Below are positions 9,054 through 58,870 of a stretch of DNA of 64,000 bases, piece after piece. The notes below the pieces were generated by a model that worked only from the letters and a program-made list of their open reading frames with translations, ran no database searches and had not been told where the DNA came from. The position numbers and the translations under genes are program-made. How positions within the stretch are numbered: the stretch's first letter is position 1; every line of letters begins with the position of its first letter. Source of the stretch: an uncultured Candidatus Saccharibacteria bacterium (GTDB taxonomy: Bacteria > Patescibacteriota > Minisyncoccia > UBA6257 > GWB1-50-10); contig CAYISA010000005.1 of NCBI GenBank assembly GCA_964365955.1, forward strand, positions 751 through 64,750, written 5' to 3'.

Positions 9054-9091
9054 AATATAAAAACGCCTTTTTTAAGGGCGTTTTATATATT

Positions 9092-39387: not shown

Positions 39388-39565
39388 ATAGATATAAAGA
39401 TAGTAGTAATAGAACTAAGAGTGTGGATATGTGGAAAACAAAATCCGTCCTTTAAACAGAAGAGTTTTTAAAAGAAGCGGCATTTTATATTCCGTGGATA
39501 ACGTGGGATAAAATACTATGGATTTTCGAGAACGGGTAAAAAAAGCTATTTTTTTCCACATGTTG
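39388..39565. other. Candidate oriC segment (DnaA-box cluster in the dnaA-dnaN spacer).
   Basis: TGTGGATAT (39422-39430), cGTGGATAA (39493-39501) and TTtTCCACA (39552-39560) are each one mismatch from TTATCCACA. There are AT-rich stretches between them. Confidence 0.5.
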
Positions 39566-41165: not shown

Positions 41166-41300
41166 ATGAGCGTTACCTATCAACCGAAAAAGAAGAAACG
41201 CCGCAGAACGCATGGTTTTTTAGCGCGGAAAAGAACTCCGGGAGGGCGCGCCGCGATAAAACGAAGAAGGCAAAAAGGACGGAAACGGCTTTCCGTCTAA
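41166..41300 (+). CDS. rpmH: 50S ribosomal protein L34.
   Basis: 44 aa: [44 protein letters not shown]. Absent from the ORF track because it is under 60 aa. Confidence 0.85.
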
Positions 41301-41307
41301 CGAAACC

Positions 41308-41562
41308 GTGGTCATCACCCTTAAAAAAGTTGTTTCAAAAACCGCGAAGAATCGGTGCGTGATTATTGTTGGGAAAAACGTCGAAAAAAAAGCGACAGGG
41401 AGAAATAAAATTAAAAGGCGCCTACGGGCAATTCTCCGCCCCCTTCTCGCAAGACAGGAAAAAGGACAAGGAGTACGTGTCGTGGTAAAACCGGGAGCAA
41501 CAGCGATGACTTTCCGGATATTGAAACAAGAAGTAGAGAGCAGCTTTGACTCCGCGAAGTAA
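41308..41562 (+). CDS. rnpA: RNase P protein component (GTG start).
   Basis: Basic 84-aa protein in the canonical rpmH-rnpA position. Confidence 0.8.
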   Translation: MVITLKKVVSKTAKNRCVIIVGKNVEKKATGRNKIKRRLRAILRPLLARQEKGQGVRVVVKPGATAMTFRILKQEVESSFDSAK

Positions 41563-42708: not shown

Positions 42709-42731
42709 AATAACCCCTCCGATCGGCGGAG

Positions 42732-43898
42732 TTATTGTGATGCGAGGGAAAGTTCGTAAAGAAATCCGTCGTAACGGTTAATAAAATACAATTTTCCGGC
42801 GCGGGCGGTAACGTGTGAAGCGTCGATTGCCGGGAATGTTTCGCTAAGACTTGTAAAAATCTTTTCCGTTCCCGTGTCTTCGCTTGCCGAATAAAGATCG
42901 TCAACCGTGTAGAATTTTCGCATGAGGTAATCATCGGGAATGGTTGCCGGATTTTCTTTTGTCGAGAGCTCGCGGGGAACGAAACAGTAAACCGAAGAGC
43001 TTGCATAAGCCGCGCATTTCGAAGGAAACGTCGTGAAGATCACGGGAGTTTGGAGTCCCATTCTTTCGTCAAGAATCGAAAACTGGTTGGGGGAAAAGAA
43101 CATAAAAAGTGTTTTGAACGTATCGTCCCATCCGACCGTAAGCCCCCGCTCCCCCTGAACCAAAAGCGAGAGTTCTTGTGTTTTTAGATTCAGGCGCCAC
43201 AAACGCCCGTTTTGCAGGAACGACGGTTTTTCCGCGATAAGAAGCGTGCCGGGCGACTGTGGGATAAAATGAACGTCTGTAAGCCGAAAATCTTTTATAA
43301 CCGTAACATATTGGACGGGTGTGCGCGTATAGTCGAATGTCGCAAGAGACGGCAGACCGCCCGCCTGAACGATGCCCACAATCTCGTTTGTTTTTGTTCC
43401 CCATGCCGCCTCTTTTACTTCAGCCGGCAGGGGTCTCCACACCTTGTCCTGCGCGTCAAATACCCCCCATGAAGGCGTGAGCGGGCTTCCGAATGCCACC
43501 AGCACGCGCGTCCCGTCCGTGTTCGGGATTACGCGATTTAGCGTAGAGATGGTTTCCGTGGACACTTCAAGGTCGGGTCCGGATTTTGCGGACGCGATTT
43601 TCCCGTCGGGTTTGAAATAAAATACGTCTTCTCCGTTTTTCAAAACCCAGTAATCAAAAATAGGAACGTCCGAGATGCGGCGCAACACCGTTCCGCCTGC
43701 ACCCTTCATTTCTGCAGGGTATTCCTTTATCGGGGGCGCGGTGGGCGCAAACGGAAGCGATGATGTAGAAGAAGATTCGGAGGGAGGAACAATCGGCTCG
43801 CTTAACGCCTTCCAGACAAAATAACCCAAAAGAGCCACAAAGATTATTCCTACCGCTATAATTGTTATTTTAAATGAAAAGCGCATAAAGTTTAGCAA
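42732..43898 (-). CDS. Membrane-anchored protein of unknown function (last gene of the T4SS-like operon).
   Basis: N-terminal TM segment with a Ser/Pro linker. Its start overlaps the upstream pilin-like gene by 7 nt. Confidence 0.4.
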   Translation of the reverse strand: MLNFMRFSFKITIIAVGIIFVALLGYFVWKALSEPIVPPSESSSTSSLPFAPTAPPIKEYPAEMKGAGGTVLRRISDVPIFDYWVLKNGEDVFYFKPDGKIASAKSGPDLEVSTETISTLNRVIPNTDGTRVLVAFGSPLTPSWGVFDAQDKVWRPLPAEVKEAAWGTKTNEIVGIVQAGGLPSLATFDYTRTPVQYVTVIKDFRLTDVHFIPQSPGTLLIAEKPSFLQNGRLWRLNLKTQELSLLVQGERGLTVGWDDTFKTLFMFFSPNQFSILDERMGLQTPVIFTTFPSKCAAYASSSVYCFVPRELSTKENPATIPDDYLMRKFYTVDDLYSASEDTGTEKIFTSLSETFPAIDASHVTARAGKLYFINRYDGFLYELSLASQ

Positions 43899-44875
43899 GG
43901 ACGGATGTCATTTTGAATATCGGTCATTTCCGTGTCATTGTATAGATCGCAGTATCCAGTTACGGGATTACAGTTTGCTTCAGGAGAAGTTTGAGTCCCT
44001 CCTCTACCCGACGCTTGTAGTGGTTTTCTCCACGCATAGATAATACACCGAGCCCCCGTTTTGTTCGTATCACTCATTTTATAATAAGGATAGGTCCAAA
44101 CTAAGGAGTATGTTGGAATTTTTTCTTCATTCTCGGCATAAAAATCTTCATATATGGGTAGATTATCAGTAACACCGCCAAGTACATTTCCATAATTATT
44201 TCCTTCACCTTGTCTAAAAATATCACCAGACAAAGGACGAATTCCATGTGTTCCCATCCTCGTTCCGTCTAAATCTAAAGTGAGAATTATTTTCCCAGGG
44301 CATGTTGTAGTAGCCATCACGGTTCTGGGGCAAGCAATGGCTGATGGAACACACCCGCCGCAAGTCGCGCTCTGTTGCGTGCCCGGAGTGGTACAAATAT
44401 CCACGCATACTGATGGAGTATCTAAATACTCACCGGTTGGACCCTTTGGATTGCAACGATATTGTCTAGCAGGACATGCCAAAGAAGGGTCTTCGCGTAC
44501 GCTAAGCGTTTTAAGCTGCGGATTTACGGTATTCAGGATAAGCACCGCTCCGAAAAGAAGCGCCACACCCCAGAGTGCAGAAAAAATCATGTCTTTTGCA
44601 TCATTTTGAACATCCGGTTTTCCCGCAGAGGTTGCATAACGAATACCTCCCGCGACGATCATAAGCATTGCGAGCGCGCCGGAAATCCAGAGCGCAAACG
44701 TATAAAAATTCTGAATGTATTCCGCGATGGGATTGGTGTTTTTTGAAAATCCGGCATTCGGATTCGCGAAGCTTAAATCGATATTCGTTGCTCCAAATGC
44801 GGGCAGGACAAAACCGAGCGCCAGGATTCCTACATTCGCTATCAAAAACCATTTTGCGATTTTTTTGAGCGTCAT
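43892..44875 (-). CDS. VirB2/TrbC-like pilin-topology protein with a long Cys-rich C-terminal extension.
   Basis: Signal peptide ...PAFGA, then two hydrophobic helices separated by the short polar loop GGIRYATSAGKPDVQ (TrbC/VirB2 topology). Then ~200 aa containing 14 or more Cys. Confidence 0.45.
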   Translation of the reverse strand: MTLKKIAKWFLIANVGILALGFVLPAFGATNIDLSFANPNAGFSKNTNPIAEYIQNFYTFALWISGALAMLMIVAGGIRYATSAGKPDVQNDAKDMIFSALWGVALLFGAVLILNTVNPQLKTLSVREDPSLACPARQYRCNPKGPTGEYLDTPSVCVDICTTPGTQQSATCGGCVPSAIACPRTVMATTTCPGKIILTLDLDGTRMGTHGIRPLSGDIFRQGEGNNYGNVLGGVTDNLPIYEDFYAENEEKIPTYSLVWTYPYYKMSDTNKTGARCIIYAWRKPLQASGRGGTQTSPEANCNPVTGYCDLYNDTEMTDIQNDIRPC

Positions 44876-44878
44876 AAG

Positions 44879-45604
44879 TTATTGTATGGTTAATTGAAAA
44901 CGTTCCTGCGCGAACTCCAACGGGTTCGAAAGATTTTGTGCTAAAAGATTTATTTGGAGCGTCCTGTCGTATTCTGACGCAGGTGTTCCGACGCCAAGCG
45001 AAAGCGTATTTTCCCCTTGCGCTTTTTTCTGCTCGCCGTTAATAGTCCAGGTAAAGTAAAGATCGTTCAATGTTTTGATATTCCAGAAAAAAGGAAATGC
45101 CTCGAGTAAAAAACGACTCTGCGACGCTACGATTTCGAGAGGCAATGGGATGTTTGCAACGATTTGGGGCGAAAGGACGGGAACCTGGAGAGAAATTTCC
45201 CGGATGTTCTCTTGGTCCATGAGACGCGCTGTCGCTTTTATTGTGACGGTTTCACCCGCGATAGATTTAGGCGTGAAAAGAATTTCTTTTTTTCCATCGC
45301 CACGGTCCATAAGTTTATCATTTATGAACCACGTAATGGTTACGCGCGACAGATCTAAAAATTTTCCGCCGCGAAGTGCTTCCAAGGACGCGGTGATCGG
45401 CGTCCCTGCCGTAGGAAACACCTTTCCTTCAAAAAACGACGGATAGAAGTTATTTGCTCTCCAGGTAAGAAAAAACTGGGTTGGGGGGGGTGTTTGAGCG
45501 CGCGCTGTGTGAAGAATTCCCCCAGCCAAGAAAACGGCTGTCCCCAAAAAGAGCGCGGCGAAAGAAAAAATTAAAAATTTCATAGGTGACTTCTTATTCA
45601 TCAT
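44879..45604 (-). CDS. Secreted protein of unknown function.
   Basis: Signal peptide; no recognised family. Confidence 0.4.
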   Translation of the reverse strand: MMNKKSPMKFLIFSFAALFLGTAVFLAGGILHTARAQTPPPTQFFLTWRANNFYPSFFEGKVFPTAGTPITASLEALRGGKFLDLSRVTITWFINDKLMDRGDGKKEILFTPKSIAGETVTIKATARLMDQENIREISLQVPVLSPQIVANIPLPLEIVASQSRFLLEAFPFFWNIKTLNDLYFTWTINGEQKKAQGENTLSLGVGTPASEYDRTLQINLLAQNLSNPLEFAQERFQLTIQ

Positions 45605-45987
45605 ACAACAGTTTTCGTTGCGATTTTAGCGGCAGGACCGCCTTTAGCCGCCACTTTTTCTGTGATAGCCGCTAATTTCGGATTGTTGTGGATAAATACC
45701 TCGATAAGAAAGGGAATGGTTATGGTAAACGCGGTAATGATAATCGGAGTTACCGGAAGAAGATTTAAACCATATTTAAGAATCTGTTTGCCAAGTTTTG
45801 TAGCATTGGGATCACCTTTGCTTCTAAACCACATGGTGATGGCGAATGTAGCAAATCCTTGGATGACAGGAGCGATGATAACTCCAACTCCCGTGATATC
45901 AATAAGAATACTTATTCCATCGACGCCGAGCGCAAAGAATGTTCCGATGATTATCTCACCCGCCCCAAATTTTTTATGTTCATCCAT
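45601..45987 (-). CDS. Small polytopic membrane protein.
   Basis: Three to four hydrophobic helices; 4-nt overlap with the next gene. Confidence 0.4.
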   Translation of the reverse strand: MDEHKKFGAGEIIIGTFFALGVDGISILIDITGVGVIIAPVIQGFATFAITMWFRSKGDPNATKLGKQILKYGLNLLPVTPIIITAFTITIPFLIEVFIHNNPKLAAITEKVAAKGGPAAKIATKTVV

Positions 45988-46001
45988 ATTCTCTTAATAG
46001 A

Positions 46002-47774
46002 TCATTTTTGTTCTTTGGCGTTTTCTTCAAGCCCTTTAATCTCAAGCATCTGTTCGGGGTTTGTAGTGACAATCTGATCCTCGGTGTAAGACGCCACCAC
46101 TTTAATGGCAACGTGTTTTAAGCCGGCAAAAAAGAGTCCTTCGCCGACCCCCGCCTCCAAAAGAAGTGTCCGTTCCCCTTCTGTCAGGTCAAACGCTTTC
46201 CCGACCGCCTCGATCGATGTTGGCGATTGTTTCAGAAGAAATTGCAAGGATGAGTTGGTGATAATCGGGCGGCCGTAATCCGATTTGATAAAATCTTCCA
46301 CGTCTTGGGTGATGGTGGTAATGCCCAAGAAATATTTTCGCGCGCGTTTCACCAGTCCGAACAAAAACGACGCGCTGTCTTTGTACTTCATCATCCACCA
46401 CGCCTCGTCAATGATTAAGAGTCGGCGTTTCAGTTGCGATCGAACAATGCTCCACACGAAGTTCAGGACGATATACATAGCAATCGGACGGAGTTCTTCT
46501 TCAAGGTCCCGAATCGAAAAAACAATCAACCGATTTTTAATATCGATGTTGGTGGGTGCATTGGTGAATCCCGCATAAGAACCATGCGTAAATTTTTCAA
46601 GGCGCTGCGCCATACTCTGTGCACCGGCGGAATTTTGCAGAATCACCTGCAAATCTTCAAGAAGCGGCGGATTCATTTCTTTGTTCAGGCCGAAATTTTC
46701 CGCCGTAATATCACGCGACGCGTAGGTTTCGGTAATCGCGCGGTCCAAAATCGCGTCTTCTTCCGGCGTTACGGCAGTGAGCATCAGTTTTAAAAGACCC
46801 GTCAAGTTTAGCACATGTGATTTAAACACGTCGCCGGGTTCTTCGCCTTCCGGAATCACGGGAATGTCGAATGGGTTGATGTGGTTCGGCGACGTAAGTG
46901 AGATTTTAAAATAGCTTCCGCCGATCGCGTTCGAGAGATTCGCATACTCATTTTCTGGATCAATCACAATCACATCCGTTCCCATCATCATGGAACGCAG
47001 GATTTCTAGTTTGGTCGTGTAGGATTTTCCGGAACCGGATTTTGCGAAGACCACGGAATTTGCGTTTTCAAGCGAGAACCGGTCAAAAATAATCAAACTA
47101 TTGTTATGCATATTGACCCCGTACAAAATTCCTTTGTCGGATGTGAGATCAGGCGAAACAAAAGGAAAAATAGAGGCGGCGGGACCGCTATTCAAAGGCG
47201 TGGTGACTTGAAGCGCATCTTCTCCTTGCGGGAGCGCGGAGCGGAAACCCTCGAGTTGGCGGAAGAGCGATTGCTTGATGTATACCAGGCGGGACTCCAG
47301 CATGTTTTCCACTGTATTTTGAAGTTTATTTAACTCTTCTAACGTGCGGCCGTAGATAGTGATATAGATTCCCACACTGAAGAGTTTTTCCCGCGCTTGT
47401 TGTAAAGCGTCTCGGAGCGTTTCCACGTCCTGAAACGCGGTTTCAAGCTGGGGATCGCGCACTAATCCTTTTTCATCGCGTTCGGAAAGTTCTGCTTGGA
47501 ACTGCGTGACTTTTTTGCGGAGATTCTTGAGAGCCAAGCTTGTATCCATAGGATGCACGAAAATCGAAACATCCATCATTTCGGGCAGGTTAATGATCGG
47601 AGAAAACCAACCGGTCGAGATAAAGCGGGGATAAGTGAATACAAACATCGAGCGCGCGAAAAAGTCCCCTATTTTTATGAAATTCGGGCTTATTTCGAGT
47701 CCCGCGGGCGCGATCACATTCGGAAGGTCCTCGGGGGATGCCTGATATTCTTTGGGGATAGAAAGAGAAGACAT
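46002..47774 (-). CDS. VirB4/TrbE/TraC-family conjugation-type ATPase (C-terminal 590 aa).
   Basis: Walker A VVFAKSGSGKSYTTK and Walker B LLIIDEAWWMMK (the DEAW signature of VirB4-like ATPases). The conserved linker region IKIGDFFARSMFVFTYPRF is present. Confidence 0.8.
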   Translation of the reverse strand: MSSLSIPKEYQASPEDLPNVIAPAGLEISPNFIKIGDFFARSMFVFTYPRFISTGWFSPIINLPEMMDVSIFVHPMDTSLALKNLRKKVTQFQAELSERDEKGLVRDPQLETAFQDVETLRDALQQAREKLFSVGIYITIYGRTLEELNKLQNTVENMLESRLVYIKQSLFRQLEGFRSALPQGEDALQVTTPLNSGPAASIFPFVSPDLTSDKGILYGVNMHNNSLIIFDRFSLENANSVVFAKSGSGKSYTTKLEILRSMMMGTDVIVIDPENEYANLSNAIGGSYFKISLTSPNHINPFDIPVIPEGEEPGDVFKSHVLNLTGLLKLMLTAVTPEEDAILDRAITETYASRDITAENFGLNKEMNPPLLEDLQVILQNSAGAQSMAQRLEKFTHGSYAGFTNAPTNIDIKNRLIVFSIRDLEEELRPIAMYIVLNFVWSIVRSQLKRRLLIIDEAWWMMKYKDSASFLFGLVKRARKYFLGITTITQDVEDFIKSDYGRPIITNSSLQFLLKQSPTSIEAVGKAFDLTEGERTLLLEAGVGEGLFFAGLKHVAIKVVASYTEDQIVTTNPEQMLEIKGLEENAKEQK

Positions 47775-47777
47775 AAA

Positions 47778-48419
47778 TTATTTTTTTGCGACCTCGATTC
47801 CTTTCTTTTCGACCAGCCCGGGATTGTAAAGATTATAGAAAAGCTCGATCAGTTCCGCGTCTTCCAAGGGTGCCGCCCGAAGACCGATTAATTCGAGTCC
47901 GCTCACCACCTGATCCACGCGATGGGTGAGCTGCTCCAGATTGTTCTGTAGGTTCGCTTTCTGCTCCGTGGAAGACGTTTTTTGAAACAGTCCAAAGAGT
48001 CCCGCGCCCGAACTGCCGGACGAAAGCGACGGAGGATCATACGGCACCACCGTAAAAAATGTCTTATTGATAATCGCATTTTGATCCACAAATGTGCGGA
48101 TAAATTCGGCATATTCGTCAATCTGGATTTTCAGGAGTTCGTTTTCTTCCTCTTCTTTCCGCTTTTTTACCCGCGCGAGATAATCGTCAATGTTCATTTT
48201 ACGCGAGTGGATGAGAAACTGTAGTGAAAAGTCGAGTGAGTTTAAGAAATTTTGGAACGTATTCAGGATAAGCGTTTGTTCTTCTTCGGATTTCAGATCG
48301 AAATTTACGCCGCTCACGATAATAATCTGGCGCAAACCGCCGTTTTTGAGGTACACAATCCCCTCTTTTATGTTTTTTACGTCTACAAATTTTTGTGTGG
48401 GGAGTGTAGGTTCCGACAT
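47778..48419 (-). CDS. VirB4 N-terminal-domain-like protein (213 aa), in frame with the ATPase ORF across a single TAA.
   Basis: The N-terminus resembles the start of Gram-positive-type VirB4 proteins (…VDVKNIKEGIVYLKNGGLRQIIIVSGVNFDLKSEEEQ…FLNSLDF…). This recognition is from memory only. Confidence 0.5.
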   Translation of the reverse strand: MSEPTLPTQKFVDVKNIKEGIVYLKNGGLRQIIIVSGVNFDLKSEEEQTLILNTFQNFLNSLDFSLQFLIHSRKMNIDDYLARVKKRKEEEENELLKIQIDEYAEFIRTFVDQNAIINKTFFTVVPYDPPSLSSGSSGAGLFGLFQKTSSTEQKANLQNNLEQLTHRVDQVVSGLELIGLRAAPLEDAELIELFYNLYNPGLVEKKGIEVAKK

Positions 48420-48435
48420 GGATACGGTTATTGTA

Positions 48436-48957
48436 TCAATAGTCCATACGCTTCGCGAGTTTGCGCTCTCCAGTCAGATAGGTGACGACCTGATACTGGT
48501 CCTTTTCTTCTTCTTCTTCTTCTTCTTCTTCGCTGTGGCCCCGGAACGCATCCATCGAGAATAACTTTCCGGTGGAGATGCCGAGCGCAACCGATTTGAT
48601 TTTTTCCTGGATCCTCATGCGTTGGCGCAGCGCCTCAAGTTTTTCGATATGAGAAACGTCAACCGTGGCTTTTGGAATTTCACGTTGCCACAGATAACGG
48701 CGCGGGTTCCACGCGAACACGAAAGCGTTTTTTAAGAATTTCGGGAACGGCTGTCCGTTGATTTCTACGAACGCGAGCGCAATAGCGAACCCTGCGACGA
48801 AAATAGAAAGAACAATCCATGCGCCGAAGGAGAAAATATAGAAAAAAATAAACGAAACAATTCCAGCCACGCCGACATAGAAAAGCTGTATCAATGTCAG
48901 AAACCCGACAATCTTCGCTTTTTCCTCGATAAATTGTGGGACCTGAAATGTTGCCAT
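48436..48957 (-). CDS. PrgI/VirB3-like small two-TM protein with a poly-Glu tract.
   Basis: The N-terminus ATFQVPQFIEEKAKIVGFLT plus two TM helices lie immediately upstream of VirB4. An E9 run is encoded by (GAA)9. Confidence 0.4.
   Translation of the reverse strand: MATFQVPQFIEEKAKIVGFLTLIQLFYVGVAGIVSFIFFYIFSFGAWIVLSIFVAGFAIALAFVEINGQPFPKFLKNAFVFAWNPRRYLWQREIPKATVDVSHIEKLEALRQRMRIQEKIKSVALGISTGKLFSMDAFRGHSEEEEEEEEEKDQYQVVTYLTGERKLAKRMDY
48505..48531. repeat. Perfect trinucleotide microsatellite: (TTC)9 on the plus strand, (GAA)9 in the minus-strand coding frame.
   Basis: Nine tandem TTC units read directly from the sequence. Confidence 0.95.
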
Positions 48958-48971
48958 AGAAAATACCGGTT

Positions 48972-49868
48972 CTAACGGAGATCCACCACGTTCCCTTCAA
49001 TGCGCGGAGTCGGTTTTTCTTCTAGTTTTACTTCCGGCACCTTGATTGGGAGCGGAGCCCCAGAGAGAGGGGTAGGTGCGCGAGAAAATCCCGACAAACT
49101 TCGCGGAAGCGGTTTTGCGTTGGGGTTCGGTTTTTGAGGCGGCGTGACGGGCGGAAATCCTATCGAGGCAATTGGTGTTACGGGAGTTTTGGTCTCGTCA
49201 TAATGTACGACGCGTTGCGTTTTCGGGATTTCCACTTCCACGCGCGCGGGCGCTCTTTCCCCCGAGGATTGGGGCATATTCGATTTAAAGAATCTGAACG
49301 GAAGCGAAAACCCTTTCCGGTCTTCCTTTGAAGTTGTTTCCACCGCGCTCTTTTCTTCGTGGATAATAAACGGCTTGATCTCTTTTTCGCCGGCAGAGGT
49401 GCTTTGCTGTGTAACCGATACGGCGCGAGGAGTCATCGCCCCACTTTTCCCGGGAAAGAAATCCAACGACACCTTTGGGCCGTTTATTTTTTGCGATTGT
49501 GGTACGGCAGACGCTGTTTTTTGAGCCGACTCCTCCTTAAGGGGAGAGTATCCCTGTTCCAGCTGTTTCTGAATCGGAAAAAAAATCTTTTTTTCGAGTT
49601 CATCCACCAGCGCGCGGGAGTGATCGAAGTTCAGAAACAACTCTTCGCTCACAAAATGCGCCAATTCGCGCGTGTGAATGAAGCCAAGAAGCGCGAGCCC
49701 CACCAACTGTTCAAAAATCTGCAATTTTTCTTCGTTCAAGTACTGTGTTTTCCCGATGGTGCGAATAATCCGTCCGTCTTCTTCGGAATTCAAGACGCCT
49801 TGCACCGACTCCGGCAGGGAGTCATATCGTTCCAACATTGCGTCTTGTGTTAGGAGTTGGTAGTTCAT
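48972..49868 (-). CDS. Hypothetical protein with a Pro-rich C-terminus.
   Basis: ORF in an operon context; no family recognised. Confidence 0.4.
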   Translation of the reverse strand: MNYQLLTQDAMLERYDSLPESVQGVLNSEEDGRIIRTIGKTQYLNEEKLQIFEQLVGLALLGFIHTRELAHFVSEELFLNFDHSRALVDELEKKIFFPIQKQLEQGYSPLKEESAQKTASAVPQSQKINGPKVSLDFFPGKSGAMTPRAVSVTQQSTSAGEKEIKPFIIHEEKSAVETTSKEDRKGFSLPFRFFKSNMPQSSGERAPARVEVEIPKTQRVVHYDETKTPVTPIASIGFPPVTPPQKPNPNAKPLPRSLSGFSRAPTPLSGAPLPIKVPEVKLEEKPTPRIEGNVVDLR

Positions 49869-49874
49869 GGGGTG

Positions 49875-52457
49875 TTATGGTGTTGGCGGTGTTGATCCTG
49901 GTGGTGGATTCCCTCCCCCCTGTTTTTTCTTCAGCTCATCTTGTGCGTCGGACGCGGCGTTTTGAAGTTCTGTGATCATAGCGATATCTTCGGGTTTGGT
50001 CATATCAAGAATTCCCGCGTTTTGAATGCTTGTTATTTGATTCGCAAGATCCTTAACACGCTGATCCCACTCCGCCGCGCCCTTCGGTTTTTTGACCCGA
50101 ATGTTCTGGAATGTATCAATCGTCTGCTCAATTTTCTTTATTTCCGCGTCTTTTATGTCAGCCTGTGTTTTATTTCCGTCACCAATATATTGGTCCCTCT
50201 GCTTTTTGAGAGTTTGCATATGGGTTTCCCATTTCTTTTCGGCCAAGAATAATTTTTTATCTTCCTCATTAAAGCGCCGAATCTGCGCGTCCAAACTCTT
50301 AATTTTTTCGTCATATGCCGAAGACGGAACCATTTTATTTTCGATCTGCTTATCGCGTAACGCGGCGATCTCTTTCTTCTGCGCCTTTGCTTCCGCCGCC
50401 GTTTCCGGTTTTCCATGTTCTTTATCGCGGCGATCCATAAGAGAGTATTCCTGATACTCCAAAGCCTTCTTTTCTCTTTCAAGCCGAGGCTTATCAAGGG
50501 ATGATGCAACGTTGATCTCTTTTTGTTTGTCATTGCTCTCTTCCGTCACGCGATCTATTTCTTCTTCGATTGCCGGACCCTCCAGTTTTCCTTGCATCTT
50601 GCGGAGCTGCGCCTCGCGCTCCCGCGGATCTGTGTAGTTTGTTGCCGTTTTGTGGATGCGTTGTGCTTCCTCGTTTGCGGAGTCGGAGTCTTGTATCTTA
50701 TTCTGCAAAGTTCCAATCTGCGACTGTGTTACGCGTTTCTGTTCGGTAAGTCTCTCGATCTGGTCCTTGTCTTTTGTTGCAGAAATCGCAGCATCAATTT
50801 TTGTCAGGTCGTCGTGAAGCGTGTTAAGTTCGCTGTCTACCAAAGTGGTATTCGACGGATCAATCTGTGCATGCAGTTCATCCCGCTGTTTGTTGATTTC
50901 TTTCTGTCCTGCGCCGGCATAACCCTGTTGTTCCGTGGCGTCCGTAATACGCTTTGCGGCTTTCTCTTGTTCCGTTGCGGAGAGTTTTTCTTTCGGTTTT
51001 TCCTTCTCTTTGAAAATTCCCGCGCTCGTCAACATATTACCCATAACAGATCCTGGGTTGATTTTTTCCTGTAGCGCAAGGTTTTTGGTGTATTTTTCAG
51101 CTCCTTTCAGCGTGGCGCCCACACCGCCTTTCTTTGCGTCGTACGGTCGTATTCCTAAAGCAGACGTCGTAACGTTGGATGCAACTGCCGCGATTTTACG
51201 CCAGCCTTTCATATTCTTTGTATCAAAGCCTTTCTCAAGTTTCTGTAAGCGTCCACCAAGTTTTCCAGCTCCTGTCGCCAGTTTCTGTCCCATTTCCGTT
51301 TGCGCGACTCTTTTTTGATACAACGCTTTCGTACGCGCCCCCGCGTATTTTCGCAGACCCTTCCCGCCGTCTTTTGCCATTTTGACTGCCGCGCCGGCAC
51401 CCTCAATTCCCATTTTGTCCGCCACAATCAAACCGCCCAACATCACGCCCGCAACGATAATCATCTGAACGCCCTGTTGCATGATGCCACCCAAGACTCC
51501 GCCCAAAAAACCTCCGGCAGCCGCGCCGCCCATCGAACTCATTCCCGCTCCGCCCGTTCCCGCGAGTTTCGCAAGCTGTTTTACGGACGCAATTGAAAGA
51601 AACATGAAAAAAGTTGAGGCGGGAGCGAAAAATGTCCATTTCATAAAATCGTGCCACCATTTGCTGTACTGGCTTGAAAGCGGCGGAAATACCCAGAAAA
51701 GCCAGACAAGCGGCGAAAGAATCGCAAGGAACGAGAGATGTAAGAAACGGAGGAGCAGAAGAAACGCGAACGCCAAAAACACGAATGTCGCAAGAAGCGT
51801 AAAGACCATGGTAAACACAAGCCCCGCAACGGAGCTCAATGCTCCGACCGTAAGCGAAGTAAGCGCGCCCTCTTCTTCCGCCGGGTTTGGCGGTGCTGGG
51901 TCTTCTTCGCCGATCAGAAATTTTTGTGGACCGAATGCATCCGCAAGTGTGCCCGTGAGACCACTCGGACCCACACCCGTTCCCGTGGTCGTCTGTTTGA
52001 TGAAAAAATTAGTTATCGTGTTTGAAAAGTTCACAAAAACGGCCATGAGCGGCAAACTGAAGTTCACGATAATCGCCGCGGCGATGAGCTTCGGCAGAAG
52101 TTTTTTAGCGGCATAATCGCGGTACCGGACAATCGTGGAAACCGCGATGATAATGATCACGATCACAAAACCAAGGTTCGCAATATCGCGCACAATCGGC
52201 CAACCGACTGTCACAATCGTATTCCCTTTTCCGAGCACGCCCTGATTGATATTCAGCATCACATCCACAAGAAACGCGGCAAGCTGGAACAGGACCGAAA
52301 AAATGAAGTTCAGAATATACGCAAGAATTTTAAATGCGCCAATAACAATATCCGTGACGCTACCAAACGGCCAGACAGCATGCGTTACTGACGGCGTGAT
52401 CAAAACCATAAGCGCGAGTCCGGCTACAATAAGATATTTTTTAGGAATACGTTTCAT
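49875..52457 (-). CDS. VirB6/TrbL-like polytopic membrane protein with a long C-terminal coiled-coil and a Pro/Gly tail (860 aa).
   Basis: Eight or more TM helices in the first ~330 aa. It sits upstream of the VirB3/VirB4 analogues, as PrgH/VirB6 does. The C-terminus is a charged coiled-coil ending GGGNPPPGSTPPTP. Confidence 0.45.
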   Translation of the reverse strand: MKRIPKKYLIVAGLALMVLITPSVTHAVWPFGSVTDIVIGAFKILAYILNFIFSVLFQLAAFLVDVMLNINQGVLGKGNTIVTVGWPIVRDIANLGFVIVIIIIAVSTIVRYRDYAAKKLLPKLIAAAIIVNFSLPLMAVFVNFSNTITNFFIKQTTTGTGVGPSGLTGTLADAFGPQKFLIGEEDPAPPNPAEEEGALTSLTVGALSSVAGLVFTMVFTLLATFVFLAFAFLLLLRFLHLSFLAILSPLVWLFWVFPPLSSQYSKWWHDFMKWTFFAPASTFFMFLSIASVKQLAKLAGTGGAGMSSMGGAAAGGFLGGVLGGIMQQGVQMIIVAGVMLGGLIVADKMGIEGAGAAVKMAKDGGKGLRKYAGARTKALYQKRVAQTEMGQKLATGAGKLGGRLQKLEKGFDTKNMKGWRKIAAVASNVTTSALGIRPYDAKKGGVGATLKGAEKYTKNLALQEKINPGSVMGNMLTSAGIFKEKEKPKEKLSATEQEKAAKRITDATEQQGYAGAGQKEINKQRDELHAQIDPSNTTLVDSELNTLHDDLTKIDAAISATKDKDQIERLTEQKRVTQSQIGTLQNKIQDSDSANEEAQRIHKTATNYTDPREREAQLRKMQGKLEGPAIEEEIDRVTEESNDKQKEINVASSLDKPRLEREKKALEYQEYSLMDRRDKEHGKPETAAEAKAQKKEIAALRDKQIENKMVPSSAYDEKIKSLDAQIRRFNEEDKKLFLAEKKWETHMQTLKKQRDQYIGDGNKTQADIKDAEIKKIEQTIDTFQNIRVKKPKGAAEWDQRVKDLANQITSIQNAGILDMTKPEDIAMITELQNAASDAQDELKKKQGGGNPPPGSTPPTP

Positions 52458-52463
52458 GTGGTG

Positions 52464-54284
52464 TTATAGCGAACAGGCGTAGGGACCGGCTTGGCACGCT
52501 CTTAACCGCGGATTTACCGTGGACGAGGCAACCGTGTTGATGTCGAAGCTAAAGCTCGGAACGATGGTAGTGATGATATTCTCTACAGAAAGATAAACAT
52601 TATTTACGACCGCAACCAGTTCTGTAAGCGATGCAACGGAGATAGCGGGGTCGTTCGCGGCAGTGCGGACTTGCTGAAGCTGGCCGGAGAGCGTTTTTAA
52701 CGAATCCAACTGGGATTGGATCACGTTTGCGCGGGTCGTGTTATTTTTTGCGATTGTCTCTGTGCTTGCACAAGGGAAGTCGGGATAGAGACCATCGGGA
52801 TCTGGAATTTTTATTTTTTCACACGCAACCAAAAGTGTTGTGGACGCAATCAAACGGTTGTTCAATGGCGTGAGTATGGGGAGCGGTGAACTAATCGTCA
52901 AAAGCGAAGAACTTGCGACGCGCATGCGCGCGGTAGTTAAGGCAATCGTCTTTGAGATCGCGTCTTTTAGCTGTGCGCTGGGGTCGAATGAGGTTCCGTA
53001 CTCGCTCCCATACCCGCCATAACGCTGATCACGCGGATCACGGCTATTATTCCACGTTTCCGAAGCGCGTCCCGTACCGCTCTCGCTCGAGAGGTTGTTC
53101 GAATCTCCACGAAGTCCTTTCACCCCTTCTTTGAATAGACGATTAATTGAGGCGTCAAAAATGGCGGAGATGTAGGGGGCAAGATCATCTGCGTTAGCAA
53201 GTAGTTGTATATCAGGTTGTATAAGCGCCTGATTTGTAAGACTTGCAACCGTTGTTCCAGGAACAGTGACCTTTTCTTTGGTACACTTCCACGTTGATGC
53301 GCTAACTGCCCCGGCTCCAACAGGAAGAGCTGTAGGTATAAATCCTTGACGCGCGGCGTCTGTATCATAAAAATTATCGTTCCAAACTGGACCGTTAGGA
53401 CCGTAGGGATTAGGAGAATTATCCGACCGCATGGATTGTGGATGTACAGAGTTATCTCCAAGGCGAAGATCGCGTGACCACTCGTAACACGCTTTTTCGT
53501 CTGTGTATCCGCCACCGGAATTTAATGCGATGCGATCCGCCTCCGCTTTTTGCGCCTGCAGTTTCGACGCCTGATCGACTGCCAGAATTTCGAGCCCCCA
53601 GCGATTATTCTGCGGCTTCAGCACTTCGTTGTATCCAACCCAGCCGCCCGCGCGAAAGTCACGGTTAAAATCCCCCACGTTTTTTACGACATCCGTAAGC
53701 GTGCAGTTCACCTGTTCTGTAAATGGAGCGGGTTGTTGAAGTTGCAGTTGCAAACGTGCCGTTAGACTGCCGGAACAGAGATTACTAAATCCCAGCGCCT
53801 CTACGGTCTGTCCGATGGATTCATCGGCGGTATCTTTTAAGAAACCTCCAAAATCATCAACGAAACGAGGTTGTCCGCTACCATCGTCCTTTATCCAAGC
53901 CACAACATCGTCGGTCATTTTATCCAAAAGGCGTTTTTTGAATTTCTGAAGAGCAACCTTCGCTATTTTATCGGTGACATATTTGATGCAGTTTTTTAAG
54001 CCCTCTTTATGGGCAAGATTGCGCAGTTCAGCGTCCTTTACAGCATCTTCTCCGCCGCCAAAAAGACCGCCAAGAACACCGCCAATAATCGGAATGCCTT
54101 CAGCAATTTTACTTAGACGATTTTGGATCTGTGCGAACAAAAGGTCGAGCCCGAGATCGGACAAACAATCCTTCCCAGGGTCGGGATCCGCAGCGGAGAC
54201 GTTACGGGGAATTATTCCAATTCCAAACGCGGTCGCAAGAATCGCTACAAGGAGAACGCCGGATAGGGCGCGCGTAGGTTTCAT
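52464..54284 (-). CDS. Large secreted protein of unknown function (606 aa).
   Basis: Signal peptide; no recognised catalytic motif. Confidence 0.45.
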   Translation of the reverse strand: MKPTRALSGVLLVAILATAFGIGIIPRNVSAADPDPGKDCLSDLGLDLLFAQIQNRLSKIAEGIPIIGGVLGGLFGGGEDAVKDAELRNLAHKEGLKNCIKYVTDKIAKVALQKFKKRLLDKMTDDVVAWIKDDGSGQPRFVDDFGGFLKDTADESIGQTVEALGFSNLCSGSLTARLQLQLQQPAPFTEQVNCTLTDVVKNVGDFNRDFRAGGWVGYNEVLKPQNNRWGLEILAVDQASKLQAQKAEADRIALNSGGGYTDEKACYEWSRDLRLGDNSVHPQSMRSDNSPNPYGPNGPVWNDNFYDTDAARQGFIPTALPVGAGAVSASTWKCTKEKVTVPGTTVASLTNQALIQPDIQLLANADDLAPYISAIFDASINRLFKEGVKGLRGDSNNLSSESGTGRASETWNNSRDPRDQRYGGYGSEYGTSFDPSAQLKDAISKTIALTTARMRVASSSLLTISSPLPILTPLNNRLIASTTLLVACEKIKIPDPDGLYPDFPCASTETIAKNNTTRANVIQSQLDSLKTLSGQLQQVRTAANDPAISVASLTELVAVVNNVYLSVENIITTIVPSFSFDINTVASSTVNPRLRACQAGPYACSL

Positions 54285-55111
54285 AAGGATGGTTGCCCCA
54301 AAGATTTTCCGATCTCGGTCTGAAATGTTTCAAGAAGCTGACTTTCTCGGTCCGCGCTTTCCGACAATTTATTGATTGCCATATAAGCCCTGAAGGGATC
54401 TTCCGCACTTTGCGAAATAATCGTTCCAAGCGAAAATCGCGCTTGCCAGAGATTCAAAAGTTCTACATGAAATGCGCCCCATCCGGACGGAACCTTTATC
54501 GAGAGAAGATCAGTTACATAGTGTGATGCGGCATCCAACTGACTTTGTATGGCAGTGGTGCGCCCATTCTGGAATGCGTCCACGATTCCCAAAAAATAAT
54601 TCGAGGTAACATTTTTGAATTCTTTCGTATGCATCTCCACGACGGTTTTGAAATACGTGGTTAATTCTTCTTTTGTGGGAGCGGTCACGGAAACGCGGAT
54701 ATCGCGAACGCTATAAGTGGGAATCGTAAGGGATTGTGTATTCAGTTCGTTTGAAACAATAGAGTTTAAAGCGTCTTCCGTAGGAACAGAAACTTTGCCG
54801 CCGTTCAGCCCGGATCCTTTCGGATTTTGCTTCAAGATCTGGAGCGTGTAAGCATTCAGAACATTTTCCGTGATATTGCCAGAAAGGACGTTCGCGGGTT
54901 TCAGCGGTTCCGGCGTCGCAGTTTGTGATGTAGGCGCTTGAATGGATGCAAAATAAGGCGAGCTTTTTATGGACCCGCCCGACGGATCCATAGAAACAAG
55001 GATGTTTTGTTGGGGCGCACTCCCGCTTTTTGCGATGACGAAAGAAAATAAAACGCTTCCCGCAAGAATCATCAAGGCGTATACTCTTTTTCTTGTGAAA
55101 AGTGTTCGCAT
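54281..55111 (-). CDS. Secreted/membrane-anchored protein of unknown function (first gene of the operon).
   Basis: N-terminal hydrophobic anchor. An AAGGAA RBS sits 17 nt after the ksgA stop. Confidence 0.45.
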   Translation of the reverse strand: MRTLFTRKRVYALMILAGSVLFSFVIAKSGSAPQQNILVSMDPSGGSIKSSPYFASIQAPTSQTATPEPLKPANVLSGNITENVLNAYTLQILKQNPKGSGLNGGKVSVPTEDALNSIVSNELNTQSLTIPTYSVRDIRVSVTAPTKEELTTYFKTVVEMHTKEFKNVTSNYFLGIVDAFQNGRTTAIQSQLDAASHYVTDLLSIKVPSGWGAFHVELLNLWQARFSLGTIISQSAEDPFRAYMAINKLSESADRESQLLETFQTEIGKSLGQPSL

Positions 55112-55127
55112 TTTCCTTTATTATACA

Positions 55128-55931
55128 CTATTTTTGCGGACATCCGAGTGTTTTTGTAAGTGCTATAATGGTTTCAACCGATAGATTCTGCGGGCGGCTG
55201 TTTGCAGGAACAGAAAGATGCGCTAATGCTTTGATGACGGCGGTTTTTTTCGCGGGGTAGGCAAAAACAAGGTTGTTCAAAACCGTCTTTCTCGGTTGCC
55301 GGAAGAGATTGCGGACGAATAAGAAGTAATTTTTCAAAAAAGAATCATCGGGAATCCCGGGTTTCGAGTTTAACTCTATGACGGCGGAGTTCACGTTGGG
55401 CTGTGGCGAAAAATAGCGGGCCGGAATTTTTAAAATGAGTTTGGGCGTTGCCCATATCTGGAGCGTAGCGGCCAACAGATTCATGCGTGGCGGAAGCGCA
55501 ACGATCCGTTCCGCTACTTCTTGCTGGATCGTAAACACCGCGCGCGTCGGCCGTTTCGGCAAATCTCCCAGCAGGCGGAATAAATAACCCGTGAGGTAAT
55601 ACGGGATATTCCCTATGACCTTAAAGCCATTTTTGTTTGAAAAACGCGCGACAACGCCGGGAAGTTCTTTTCGGACATCTCCTTCCCTTACAACCAAATT
55701 CGGAAAGCGCGAAACCGGGAATATCCTGCGAAGCTCCTTTGCGAGGCGCGCATCCTTTTCGATTGTGAGAAGGTGAAGTTTCGGAACTTTCTCTAAAAGC
55801 GCGCGCGTCAGTTCGCCGTGACCCGGACCCACTTCGATGACCGCGTCTTCGCCGGTTGGTTCAAGCGCATCCGCAATTGCGAAGAGAGTCGGGTGGTGCG
55901 TCAAAAAATGTTGTCCTAATCGTTTCGGCAT
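55128..55931 (-). CDS. ksgA: 16S rRNA adenine dimethyltransferase KsgA/RsmA.
   Basis: LGQHFL N-terminal motif and SAM-binding VIEVGPGHGELT. Start taken at MPKRLGQHFL. Confidence 0.85.
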   Translation of the reverse strand: MPKRLGQHFLTHHPTLFAIADALEPTGEDAVIEVGPGHGELTRALLEKVPKLHLLTIEKDARLAKELRRIFPVSRFPNLVVREGDVRKELPGVVARFSNKNGFKVIGNIPYYLTGYLFRLLGDLPKRPTRAVFTIQQEVAERIVALPPRMNLLAATLQIWATPKLILKIPARYFSPQPNVNSAVIELNSKPGIPDDSFLKNYFLFVRNLFRQPRKTVLNNLVFAYPAKKTAVIKALAHLSVPANSRPQNLSVETIIALTKTLGCPQK

Positions 55932-55986: not shown

Positions 55987-56988
55987 ATGCTTAAGACGAC
56001 CACACTTTGGTCGATTGTTTTTCTGTGTATCGCGGTATCGGGGAGCGTTGCTTTTTCCGTGTTGGTGCGCAAGGGCAGTACGTTGGAAGAGATCTATCGC
56101 GTGGAGGGAGGTCTCGCAAACGGAAATGACGACTTTTCTTTTGCAGTAGGAAGACAGGGAATAGGAAACGGGCATGCCACTTTGGAAGCGATGCGCTTTG
56201 TATCTATGGACGGGTCTCTTCTTGCGTCCCTTTCCCCTTTAACGAACATGATTGCTTCGCGGAACGGCCTGAAGCGGTACACGGTGCAGAAAAAAGATAC
56301 GCTCGCAAAAATCGCCTCGCAATTCAATATCGATGTGGCGACCATCAAGGCGGCGAATCCGGGTATTCGCTCGGGGCTTCGTCCGGGGCAGCAAATCAGC
56401 ATTTTGCCTGTTTCGGGCATCGTGTACGACGTTGTGGAAGGCGATACGGTGGAATCACTCGCGTTAAAATTCCATATGGAACCCGATCTTTTCAGGCGTT
56501 ACAACCCCGATTTTCAGAAAGTTTTAGTAACGGGCCGCGGAACGCTTATTTTACCGAACGTGAAACCGGATACATCGCTCATCGCCAAAAAAGAAGGGGC
56601 GCTCCCCGATCTAAAAGGCTATTTTTCGCTTCCCGCGAAAGGATGGAATTGGGGCGAGCTACACGAAAAAAACGCGGTGGATATCGCGAATAAATGCGGA
56701 ACGGAAGTATACGCATCGGCGGACGGAGTGGTGGTTCCGGATGACAAGTTCGGCGAAGGTGCGGACGGGTGGAATGATGGATACGGCGTTTTTGTTTTGT
56801 TGGAACACCCGAACGGCACGCGTACGCGGTACGCGCATTTGGGACGGGCGCTCGTGACGGTGGGAGAAGAAGTGAGTCAAGGAACCATCGTGGGCGTGAT
56901 GGGGAACACGGGGAACACGCACGGACCCAGCGGGTGCCACCTTCATTTTGAAGTGCTCGGCGCAAAGAACCCTTTCGCTATTCGCTGA
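55987..56988 (+). CDS. LysM-domain plus M23 family metallopeptidase.
   Basis: LysM region YTVQKKDTLAKIASQFNIDVATIKAANP, and the M23 motifs HxxxD-like and GCHLHFEV. Confidence 0.8.
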   Translation: MLKTTTLWSIVFLCIAVSGSVAFSVLVRKGSTLEEIYRVEGGLANGNDDFSFAVGRQGIGNGHATLEAMRFVSMDGSLLASLSPLTNMIASRNGLKRYTVQKKDTLAKIASQFNIDVATIKAANPGIRSGLRPGQQISILPVSGIVYDVVEGDTVESLALKFHMEPDLFRRYNPDFQKVLVTGRGTLILPNVKPDTSLIAKKEGALPDLKGYFSLPAKGWNWGELHEKNAVDIANKCGTEVYASADGVVVPDDKFGEGADGWNDGYGVFVLLEHPNGTRTRYAHLGRALVTVGEEVSQGTIVGVMGNTGNTHGPSGCHLHFEVLGAKNPFAIR

Positions 56989-58525: not shown

Positions 58526-58870
58526 TTATGCCGTTTGCCTAAGTTTGCAATCCTGACAGAGCTCGGACTCCGGATCCACTTCAAGAACGGCTAACGGGAT
58601 AGGTTGCTTGCATGTTTCGCATATTCCGTACGTCCCGTCCTTTATTTTTTGAAGCGCCGTATCAATGCGTTCCGTTCGTGTTTTTAGGGATTCCACCAGT
58701 TCCACCTGATTTGAAAATTCAGTGGTTTCATCGCCTTCTTCCTGATACGAATCCGTATCATCGCCGTAGTCGCGTGTTTTTTGCAATTCTTCAAGACGTT
58801 TTTTAATTTCTTTTCGCCCATTCAAAAGTTTTTCCGAAAAACGTGTGATTTGCTCGGTTGAAAATGACAT
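58526..58870 (-). CDS. DksA/TraR-family C4 zinc-finger protein.
   Basis: CETCKQPI...CQDCK (C-x2-C-x17-C-x2-C) after a coiled-coil N-terminal half. Confidence 0.7.
   Translation of the reverse strand: MSFSTEQITRFSEKLLNGRKEIKKRLEELQKTRDYGDDTDSYQEEGDETTEFSNQVELVESLKTRTERIDTALQKIKDGTYGICETCKQPIPLAVLEVDPESELCQDCKLRQTA

Follow-up and report, generated by a model that had tools for sequence, protein, structure and literature searches.

A chromosomal, pilin-bearing and relaxase-less locus near the replication origin, predicted to be a typical Patescibacteria-clade type IV secretion system

Background

The closest described counterparts of the gene cluster considered here are the type IV secretion systems (T4SSs) of the Patescibacteria. 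The cluster comprises eleven genes at positions 42732-55111 of a 64,000-nucleotide stretch (the window, whose numbering is used throughout; about 751-64750 on the contig) of contig CAYISA010000005.1, a 71,126-bp sequence from a Hainich groundwater metagenome that represents an ultrasmall member of the Patescibacteria; as a kind of system it is already known, having been described for the phylum between 2023 and 2025, and is not new. In a survey of 3,035 Patescibacteria genomes, VirB4 was found in 2,417, and a monophyletic Patescibacteria clade of 2,425 VirB4 proteins fell within MPF_FATA, one of the mating-pair formation (MPF) types (Quinonero-Coronel 2025, Microb Genom; PMC12102498). Genes for TrsD, PrgI/VirB3, VirB6 and VirB2-like pilins (PF04956, PF18895) are commonly located beside virB4, relaxases are almost absent, and the clusters of Paceibacteria and Microgenomatia lie near dnaA, dnaN, ksgA, rnpA and rpmH. 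In the same survey, many genomes had VirD4 homologues, most of them distant from virB4, and a few had relaxases.

For the Saccharibacteria, transposon sequencing has shown that the T4SS genes SEML1_0006-0019, including those for the pilins, are essential for epibiotic growth, and the system contains no recognisable coupling protein or relaxase (Wang 2023, Cell; PMC10633639). A 2025 review regards these as the first T4SSs of monoderms to have potential pili and raises, as speculation, a conduit for uptake (PMC12857230), and a preprint reports tubular structures at the parasite-host interface that may be T4SS pili (bioRxiv 10.64898/2026.06.21.733656).

Results

From its sequence, the locus is predicted, with a probability of roughly 0.93-0.95, to be a typical member of this Patescibacteria clade of T4SSs: chromosomal, without a relaxase, and bearing a pilin gene. 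The eleven genes, named g1 to g11 in operon order and with product lengths in amino acids (aa), are as follows.

g1, 54281-55111, minus strand: 276 aa; single N-terminal hydrophobic segment; no known family
g2, 52464-54284, minus strand: 606 aa; secreted or anchored; four near-invariant Cys
g3, 49875-52457, minus strand: 860 aa; predicted extended VirB6/TrbL, polytopic over residues 1 to about 390, then a coiled-coil tail of about 470 aa
g4, 48972-49868, minus strand: 298 aa; no hydrophobic segment; helical N-domain, then Pro-rich low-complexity sequence
g5, 48436-48957, minus strand: 173 aa; PrgI/VirB3-like small membrane protein with an acidic tail
g6, 47778-48419, minus strand: 213 aa; TrsD-like, corresponding to the VirB4 N-terminal domain as an open reading frame (ORF) of its own
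g7, 46002-47774, minus strand: 590 aa; VirB4 ATPase core (MPF_FATA / CD1110 type)
g8, 45601-45987, minus strand: 128 aa; membrane protein of no known family, three hydrophobic segments
g9, 44879-45604, minus strand: 241 aa; N-terminal signal or anchor segment; no known family
g10, 43892-44875, minus strand: 327 aa; VirB2-like T4SS pilin domain with a Cys-rich C-terminal extension of about 210 aa
g11, 42732-43898, minus strand: 388 aa; membrane-anchored; invariant Cys pair; suggested partner of the pilin gene

The ATPase core encoded by g7 matches the NCBIfam VirB4 family CD1110 (conju_CD1110) at 2.4e-110 and 370 bits (cut-off 325) over profile positions 186-733 of 752, as well as Pfam P-loop_TraG, AAA_10 and DUF87, and carries the Walker A motif AKSGSGKS and the Walker B motif LLIIDEAWW. 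Its best plasmid relatives are VirB4 proteins of the CD1110 family from Bacillota and Actinomycetota, with 28-35% identity. The product of g6 matches NCBIfam TrsD (4.5e-9), positions 104-230 of VirB4_plasma and positions 7-119 of the CD1110 VirB4 profile, and is annotated in the source record as PF26593 TraC-like; judged by these complementary profile positions, g6 and g7 together are one VirB4. The two halves are also separate ORFs in 49 related loci, for which reason a frameshift artefact was rejected as the cause of the split, and they are fused (716-795 aa) in L042-L045, a small Parcubacteria sub-lineage. Long single VirB4s are seen in Peregrinibacteria and Gracilibacteria. Upstream of the pair, g5 matches Pfam PrgI with an E-value of 6.5e-8 and 33.4 bits (cut-off 27) and TcpE more weakly; in distant classes, too, a PrgI gene immediately precedes TrsD-VirB4.

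The g3 protein has seven hydrophobic segments followed by a charged coiled-coil tail. It falls below every Pfam threshold itself, and Pfam scans of its orthologues gave weak TrbL matches in 3 of 35; its N-terminal 400 residues have more than 160 close homologues, and three of these (P0013, P0026 and P0112; 38-44% identical) score above the Pfam TrbL/VirB6 gathering threshold along the full profile. An AlphaFold2 (AF2) model built from 76 sequences was confident (predicted local distance difference test score, pLDDT, 84.4; predicted template modelling score, pTM, 0.79), and its best structural match in the PDB was TrwI/VirB6. With homologues that pass TrbL and this fold match of the model, g3 is assigned as a predicted 'extended VirB6', the variable, charged coiled-coil tail of which (about 470 residues) is probably cytoplasmic by the positive-inside rule. 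PF19590, which is listed on most g3 homologues and is presumably a TrbL-like family, was given no weight. The pilin domain of g10, a signal peptide plus two hydrophobic helices, matches Pfam T4SS_pilin (PF18895) over residues 48-116 at 3.2e-8 and 34.0 bits (cut-off 26.6), with a weak match to TrbC/VirB2 (0.008); the T4SS_pilin model is matched by 30 of the 33 g10 orthologues, and g10 is the sole pilin in the window.

Much of this had been anticipated by the original prediction, made from the letters of the window, which described eleven co-directional minus-strand ORFs with junctions from a 7-nucleotide (nt) overlap to a 16-nt gap and likened them to minimized Gram-positive-type modules with the order VirB6-like, VirB3-like, VirB4. 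Recomputation of the ORFs and their junctions agreed, and a T4SS-type apparatus of the Gram-positive (MPF_FATA) kind in this order is supported. The proposed division of the VirB4-type ATPase into N- and C-terminal ORFs is borne out by the CD1110 and TrsD matches, that of a PrgI/VirB3-like protein upstream of it by the PrgI match, and that of a VirB2/TrbC-type pilin with a Cys-rich tail by the PF18895 match, while the 860-aa polytopic coiled-coil protein in the VirB6/TrbL position finds its support in the TrbL-passing homologues and the TrwI fold.

No relaxase, type IV coupling protein (T4CP; VirD4/TcpA-type) or VirB11 was found among all window ORFs of at least 277 aa or in the remaining 6 kb of the contig, which extends beyond the window an absence of relaxase, VirD4 and VirB11 that had already been proposed for it. 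All window ORFs of this size outside the cluster are housekeeping genes or belong to no family. With regard to the features of an integrated conjugative element (ICE), the locus has neither a relaxase/MOB domain nor a coupling ATPase (window and contig), and it does not show mobile-element behaviour.

Relatives were collected by a VirB4 scan of one genome per GTDB species, followed by tblastn of all window proteins against the retrieved loci. The 80 best VirB4 loci, at 52-79% identity, are mostly titled as Patescibacteria lineages; the titles of the others say little or seem to be wrong. The nearest VirB4 relatives are from Ca. Jorgensenbacteria (77-79%), Brennerbacteria and Paceibacterota, together at 75-79% identity; identity is 65-79% across Paceibacteria-type metagenome-assembled genomes (MAGs) and 52-59% in Peregrinibacteria, Gracilibacteria and ABY1-type lineages. 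About 40 species-level MAGs share the block (comM-M23-)ksgA-g1...g11-jag-yidC-(rnpA-rpmH)-dnaA-dnaN, with gene order and orientation unchanged. As all eleven genes recur in order in about 40 other genomes, the observation is not one of chance, and the shared order and chromosomal position indicate vertically inherited core DNA rather than an ICE. An ICE had already been disfavoured in the original prediction, in part for the core-chromosome site beside the origin; ksgA lies upstream and rpmH-rnpA-yidC-jag and dnaA-dnaN downstream. The GC content of the block resembles that of its flanks, with no compositional break. Identity drops from the cytoplasmic motor towards the exposed parts, from VirB4 (65-79%) through TrsD (50-66%), PrgI (40-53%) and the VirB6 core (about 45%) to g1, g2, g4 and g8-g11 (about 20-50%); in round figures, VirB4 stands at about 77%, TrsD at about 60%, PrgI at about 48% and the exposed proteins at 20-40%. 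Many records (L008, L018, L023, L055, L056, L063-L065 and others) combine a VirB4 of the Paceibacteria or candidate phyla radiation type, and its synteny, with the title 'uncultured Candidatus Saccharibacteria' or 'uncultured Gammaproteobacteria'; such oddly titled GTDB MAG records are probably mislabelled bins.

Compared with the surveyed clade (PMC12102498), the locus shares a VirB4 of MPF_FATA affinity (nearest relatives Patescibacteria, by best hits), an adjacent TrsD-like gene, PrgI/VirB3, VirB6 and a PF18895 pilin, a neighbourhood free of relaxase and T4CP, and the position beside dnaA, dnaN, ksgA, rnpA and rpmH, and there is no essential difference. The survey leaves the other neighbours unannotated, and the present comparison goes beyond it in that g1, g2, g4, g8, g9 and g11 are fixed block members in about 40 genomes. 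The T4SS of Southlakia epibionticum ML1 (PMC10633639) is likewise chromosomal and origin-proximal (low locus tags), with Gram-positive-like subunits, VirB2-like pilins and no recognisable T4CP or relaxase. It differs in its class, Saccharimonadia, in an array of six divergent pilins as opposed to the one long pilin here, and in the peptidase and lysozyme genes directly downstream of virB4, where the present locus has a divergent M23/LysM gene beyond ksgA; essentiality is demonstrated on the S. epibionticum side. Given the published clade, the Saccharibacteria counterpart and the review (PMC12102498, PMC10633639, PMC12857230), the view that the cluster was the best candidate in the window for an undescribed system had to be abandoned, while the original description and its inference of a non-conjugative T4SS are upheld.

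Enterococcus pCF10 Prg/Pcf shares the order VirB6 (PrgH) - VirB3 (PrgI) - VirB4 (PrgJ), and the MPF_FATA prototypes (pCF10 and the Trs systems of Staphylococcus pGO1/pSK41) share a CD1110-family VirB4, with the division into TrsD and a TrsE-type VirB4 as in pGO1 (PMC12102498). These systems are plasmid-borne, conjugative and pilin-less, and encode a T4CP (PcfC), a relaxase (PcfG), the VirB1-type PrgK, the VirB8-like PrgL and LPXTG adhesins; in contrast, none of those conjugation parts is recognisable in the present locus and a pilin is present. Comparison by hhalign of the profiles of the six proteins without known family, g3 and g10 with single pCF10 PrgC-PcfB sequences yielded nothing over 20% probability, the pair g3 and PrgH included; as single-sequence targets are too weak for such comparisons, this is uninformative and does not count against a relationship. 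The R388 Trw and Agrobacterium VirB systems (MPF_T) share the VirB6 fold (TrwI being the best match to g3), a VirB2-type pilin and the VirB3-VirB4 partnership, but are diderm systems with an outer-membrane core of VirB7/9/10 and with VirB5, VirB8, VirB11, VirD4 and a relaxase, none of which was found here; g3 has an additional coiled-coil tail of about 470 aa. Helicobacter pylori ComB retains equivalents of VirB2, VirB3, VirB4 and VirB6 (ComB2/3/4/6). It provides a precedent for a non-conjugative T4SS without T4CP, relaxase and VirB11 (cited in PMC11665869), but differs in having ComB7-10 across a diderm envelope and in working with ComEC, and its sequence affinity to the locus is limited to the shared T4SS families. 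No ComB7-10-like proteins were recognised, and matches to CedB (40 bits, cut-off 700) and CedD (22 bits, cut-off 600) cover only the shared P-loop region.

The remaining six proteins (g1, g2, g4, g8, g9 and g11) gave no Pfam or NCBIfam match above threshold. They had been predicted to be secreted or membrane proteins of no recognisable family; the lack of a family stands for all six, and the location does not stand for g4, which has no hydrophobic segment, compared with one N-terminal segment each in g1, g2, g9 and g11 and three in g8. Profile searches of PDB sequences (hmmsearch with orthologue alignments of g1, g2, g3, g4, g9, g10 and g11) returned coiled-coil and low-complexity noise only, and no sequence or profile match to a VirB8-like (PrgL/TcpC, NTF2-like) protein or a VirB1-like hydrolase was obtained among g1, g2, g9 and g11. 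Cysteines are confined to g2 (10), g10 (12) and g11 (2) among the eleven proteins, a distribution that fits disulfide-bonded extracytoplasmic proteins. With their N-terminal hydrophobic segments, g1, g2, g9 and g11 are taken to be extracytoplasmic, and g8 to be a small polytopic protein. In the more distant loci, profile searches detected VirB6, the long pilin and g11 and did not detect g1, g2, g8 or g9.

The largest of the six, g2, is listed by NCBI as 'hypothetical protein AAB631_02210 [Patescibacteria group bacterium]'. It has a conserved core (residues 100-260 and 325-400), with C170, C194, C266 and C334 kept in 93-100% of orthologues, and its profile finds 4,506 clusters (50% identity) at E<=1e-3 among 1.84 billion representatives, with 790 at E<=1e-30. 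Ten of these clusters were looked up, and all named ones are a 'hypothetical protein' from Parcubacteria/Paceibacterota. A Pfam scan of ten long or distant family members for extra domains gave a sub-threshold PKD match in one only, and the AF2 model of g2 (15-sequence alignment) was poor (pLDDT 55.9, pTM 0.34), with no Foldseek match at E<=0.001. Homologues of the g2 family were numbered P0121-P0280, and Pfam covers the family with no model, scans of all g2 orthologues having drawn a blank. The g1 protein has its hydrophobic segment at residues 10-28, and its orthologues, 19-39% identical and at the same position, occur in Paceibacteria-type loci only. In g4, a small helical N-domain and a Pro-rich low-complexity region are accompanied by conserved short motifs (C-terminal EGNxIDLR) in 23 orthologues, with no Cys; given its lack of hydrophobic segments, g4 is probably cytoplasmic and largely disordered. 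The g8 gene is kept in 23 loci at 27-52% identity, and g9 has conserved aromatic motifs (TW, FF, W) and 40 orthologues with 23-40% identity at the same position.

The extension of the g10 pilin (residues about 120-327) has no Pfam match and is strongly variable; whole orthologues range from 234 to 594 aa, with a mean column identity of 16%, and among the few Cys that recur, in 72-88% of them, is the C-terminal residue. Its neighbour g11 has one N-terminal hydrophobic segment and invariant C295 and C305, and scattered sub-threshold propeller, Kelch and PD40 Pfam matches among its orthologues indicate that it is probably a beta-propeller. The order pilin-g11 is kept in distant classes (L056, L064, L065, L068, L076, L081 and L082) in which g1, g2, g8 and g9 are not detectable, and this adjacency across classes suggests that g10 and g11 may form a functional pair.

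The features that flank the cluster, or that were considered in relation to it, are as follows.

ksgA, 55128-55931, minus strand: 16S rRNA dimethyltransferase (Pfam RrnaAD on the called 267-aa product); co-directional with and directly upstream of g1
Hairpin, 42717-42731, both strands: terminator-like, between the convergent ends of g11 and jag; CTCCGCCGATCGGAG, then a T-rich tail on the minus strand; from a consensus scan only
LysM and M23 peptidoglycan endopeptidase, 55987-56988, plus strand: divergent from ksgA; Pfam Peptidase_M23 1.8e-23, LysM 1.1e-17
ComM-type gene, 56978-58522: conserved neighbourhood upstream of the operon, three genes away
XerC/D-like tyrosine recombinase, 63093-63977: about 8 kb from the operon; N-terminal SAM-like domain
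rnpA, 41308-41562: divergent from dnaA-dnaN
rpmH, 41166-41300: divergent from dnaA-dnaN
Cluster of DnaA-box-like 9-mers, 39422-39560: in the dnaN-dnaA spacer; 4 of the 20 window matches to TTATCCACA (at most one mismatch) inside 139 bp
PilB/GspE-type ATPase, 27823-29496: T2SSE family; sole secretion-type ATPase outside the cluster in the window

Measured from the longest-ORF starts, the junctions from g1 to g11 are -4, 6, 6, 14, 16, 3, 14, -4, 3 and -7 nt; the source gene caller starts g1, g9 and g11 slightly further in (263, 234 and 384 aa, respectively), with the consequence that three junctions shift by a few to about 40 nt. The gap between ksgA and g1 is 16 nt from the longest-ORF start, and the two genes stay neighbours in almost every related locus. 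As ksgA is on the same strand at this distance, the co-directional run comprises 12 genes and not 11, and the transcription unit probably begins with ksgA. On the other side, rpmH, rnpA, yidC and jag are transcribed divergently from dnaA-dnaN, all within 4.5 kb downstream of the cluster, and the cluster of DnaA-box-like sequences, about 3 kb from the operon end, is likely an oriC element.

The M23/LysM, ComM-type and PilB-type genes, named as context in the original prediction, are present where it had placed them; comM and the PilB-type gene belong to the conserved housekeeping neighbourhood. The M23/LysM gene occupies the same position in about 20 related loci, with generic NCBIfam matches only (MepM/DipM/EnvC-type). 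M23/LysM domains are reported on some VirB1-like proteins (PMC12102498), and the enzyme is a possible VirB1 stand-in and equally a general cell-wall or division enzyme. The PilB-type ATPase was also considered as a hidden VirB11 and rejected, scoring 438-451 bits to PilB/GspE as against 46 bits to VirB11. The window ORFs of at least 277 aa that could be identified encode IleRS, ArgRS, a ClpB-type protein, an RNase J-type protein, a Mur ligase, RuvB, PolA, a histidine kinase, PBP1, DnaN, DnaA, PNPase, ComM, the M23/LysM protein and the XerC/D-type recombinase, and the 6 kb of contig beyond the right window end contain a glycosyltransferase, a type I restriction-modification system and a helix-turn-helix (HTH) protein. 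The restriction-modification system, as S and M subunits, lies just beyond the window (L085 12711-17113), together with a 333-aa protein of no assigned function and the HTH regulator.

Elsewhere in the window, the synthetase match of IleRS (2608-6117, minus strand, 1169 aa) is in two halves, and a complete histidine-phosphatase (His_Phos_1 / phosphoglycerate-mutase-like) domain lies between them, at about residues 496-666. A 363-aa ORF of no family (58926-60017, minus strand; weak GltJ-like low-complexity match) is located between PNPase and comM, beside a gene for a zf-dskA_traR protein (58526-58870, minus strand). The tmRNA gene (8715-9055, plus strand), with tag peptide ANKTAAPAFAFA, is ordinary.

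Discussion

In canonical T4SSs such as those of R388 and VirB, VirB4, VirB3 and VirB6 form a platform that takes the VirB2 pilin from the membrane for polymerisation, and DNA substrates are recruited by the T4CP and relaxase. By comparison, the retained VirB2, VirB3, VirB4 and VirB6 would represent the pilus-assembly half of such a system, the recruitment half (T4CP and relaxase) being absent from the locus and the contig, and since the one half is kept and the other is not found there, the most likely activity would be the formation of an extracellular VirB2-type filament or tube. VirB4 docked on VirB3/VirB6 would extract the pilin from the membrane and polymerise it, the fast-evolving secreted g1, g2, g9 and g11 together with the C-terminal domain of the pilin would provide the parts for cell-wall passage and host contact, and the resulting structure would link the epibiont to its host cell. 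Its most likely use would be as a contact device or a conduit for host macromolecules, with effector export as the alternative. By analogy with the canonical systems, a machine that builds a pilus or tube appears reasonably probable; import of host nucleic acid or other macromolecules is a possible function short of an expected one and is ranked slightly above effector export and adhesion only, and conjugation is very improbable. It may also be, as a tentative proposal, that the locus encodes the complete set of parts of a monoderm pilus-bearing T4SS, and that novel families (the abundant g2 family, the g10-g11 pair, g1, g8 and g9) make up its extracellular half, as a new kind of wall-spanning tube tipped by the variable domain of the pilin and drawing in host RNA, DNA or other molecules without a coupling protein.

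Among the alternatives to this reading, a machine dedicated to DNA or RNA uptake, pulling in host or environmental nucleic acid as a nucleotide source in the manner of the H. pylori ComB T4SS or the archaeal Ced system, may be entertained tentatively, although the balance is against it. The gene content parallels the ComB2/3/4/6 set, likewise without T4CP, relaxase and VirB11, and a ComM-type ATPase gene is located three genes upstream in conserved synteny; a role in uptake has been proposed (PMC11665869, PMC12102498), and the preprint on a cultivated member describes host-RNA feeding together with the possible T4SS pili (10.64898/2026.06.21.733656). However, the affinity to CedB and CedD is that of a P-loop, and comM-M23-ksgA is a conserved housekeeping synteny for which a functional link is not required. 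Furthermore, in S. epibionticum comEC is dispensable and the T4SS essential (PMC10633639), which means that uptake would have to bypass the normal competence channel. Delivery of effectors or toxins into a host bacterium, so as to manipulate or permeabilise it, with no VirD4-type coupling protein involved (a mode exemplified by Bordetella Ptl and Brucella VirB) is rather unlikely. Protein-secreting T4SSs without T4CP exist (PMC12857230, PMC12102498), Wang et al. suggest that the S. epibionticum system 'may instead export proteins' (PMC10633639), and the operon encodes several conserved secreted proteins with no assigned function; these secreted proteins are, however, held in a fixed order like structural parts and are not variable like effector cargo, and Pfam and NCBIfam scans revealed no effector candidate with an enzymatic or toxin domain in or beside the operon.

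An organelle for adhesion only, in which the variable domain of the VirB2-like protein would be a surface adhesin and the ATPase would merely assemble it with no passage of substrate, is distinctly unlikely. It would account for the high variability of the Cys-rich extension beside a conserved pilin core and a few conserved Cys, as for a determinant of host specificity, and for the absence of substrate-recruitment parts from locus and contig. Adhesion and motility are, however, already provided to Patescibacteria by type IV pili (PMC11623550, PMC10633639), and the extended VirB6 and strongly conserved VirB4 suggest an active translocon. Least probable of all is an ICE or its decayed remnant, with relaxase and T4CP elsewhere or lost. 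The VirB4 is of the conjugative MPF_FATA/CD1110 type, a tyrosine recombinase is encoded 8 kb away (63093-63977), and relaxases do occur in a few Patescibacteria (PMC12102498), but the eleven genes occupy one chromosomal site (ksgA to jag/dnaA) in about 40 species with a highly conserved VirB4 (65-79%), composition is continuous with the flanks, and the contig has no relaxase or T4CP. The recombinase is XerC/D-like, and PNPase, rpsO, comM and further housekeeping genes lie between it and the operon. Both synteny and composition led to rejection of the ICE hypothesis, which the synteny already largely refutes.

For the preferred reading of the locus as a Patescibacteria-clade T4SS that builds a pilus or tube towards a host, several points have to be set on the other side. 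Essentiality has been shown solely in Saccharibacteria, which are of another class and have another arrangement with a pilin array; the clade membership of g7 is predicted from best hits and not from a tree; and the extension of about 210 aa on the sole pilin may be incompatible with VirB2-type filament packing. No VirB5-, VirB8- or VirB1-like component was recognised in the locus, which leaves the analogy with pilus assembly incomplete. Moreover, a 71-kb contig leaves room for a T4CP or relaxase elsewhere in the genome, and VirD4 is often encoded far from virB4 (PMC12102498).

As an example of the Paceibacteria arrangement, the locus is clean and complete, with a single pilin. To what has been described it adds the fixed set of six accessory proteins, the size of the g2 family with its thousands of uncharacterised clusters, the pairing of pilin and g11 across classes, and the stable split of VirB4 with its occasional fusion. 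For structural studies of the machine's extracellular half, the six conserved unannotated proteins are a sensible choice. Patescibacteria, which account for a large part of bacterial diversity, lack the synthesis of nucleotides, lipids and amino acids and live attached to host cells; the T4SS near their origin, found essential in the single species examined, is among the leading candidates for the apparatus by which they would extract resources from their hosts.

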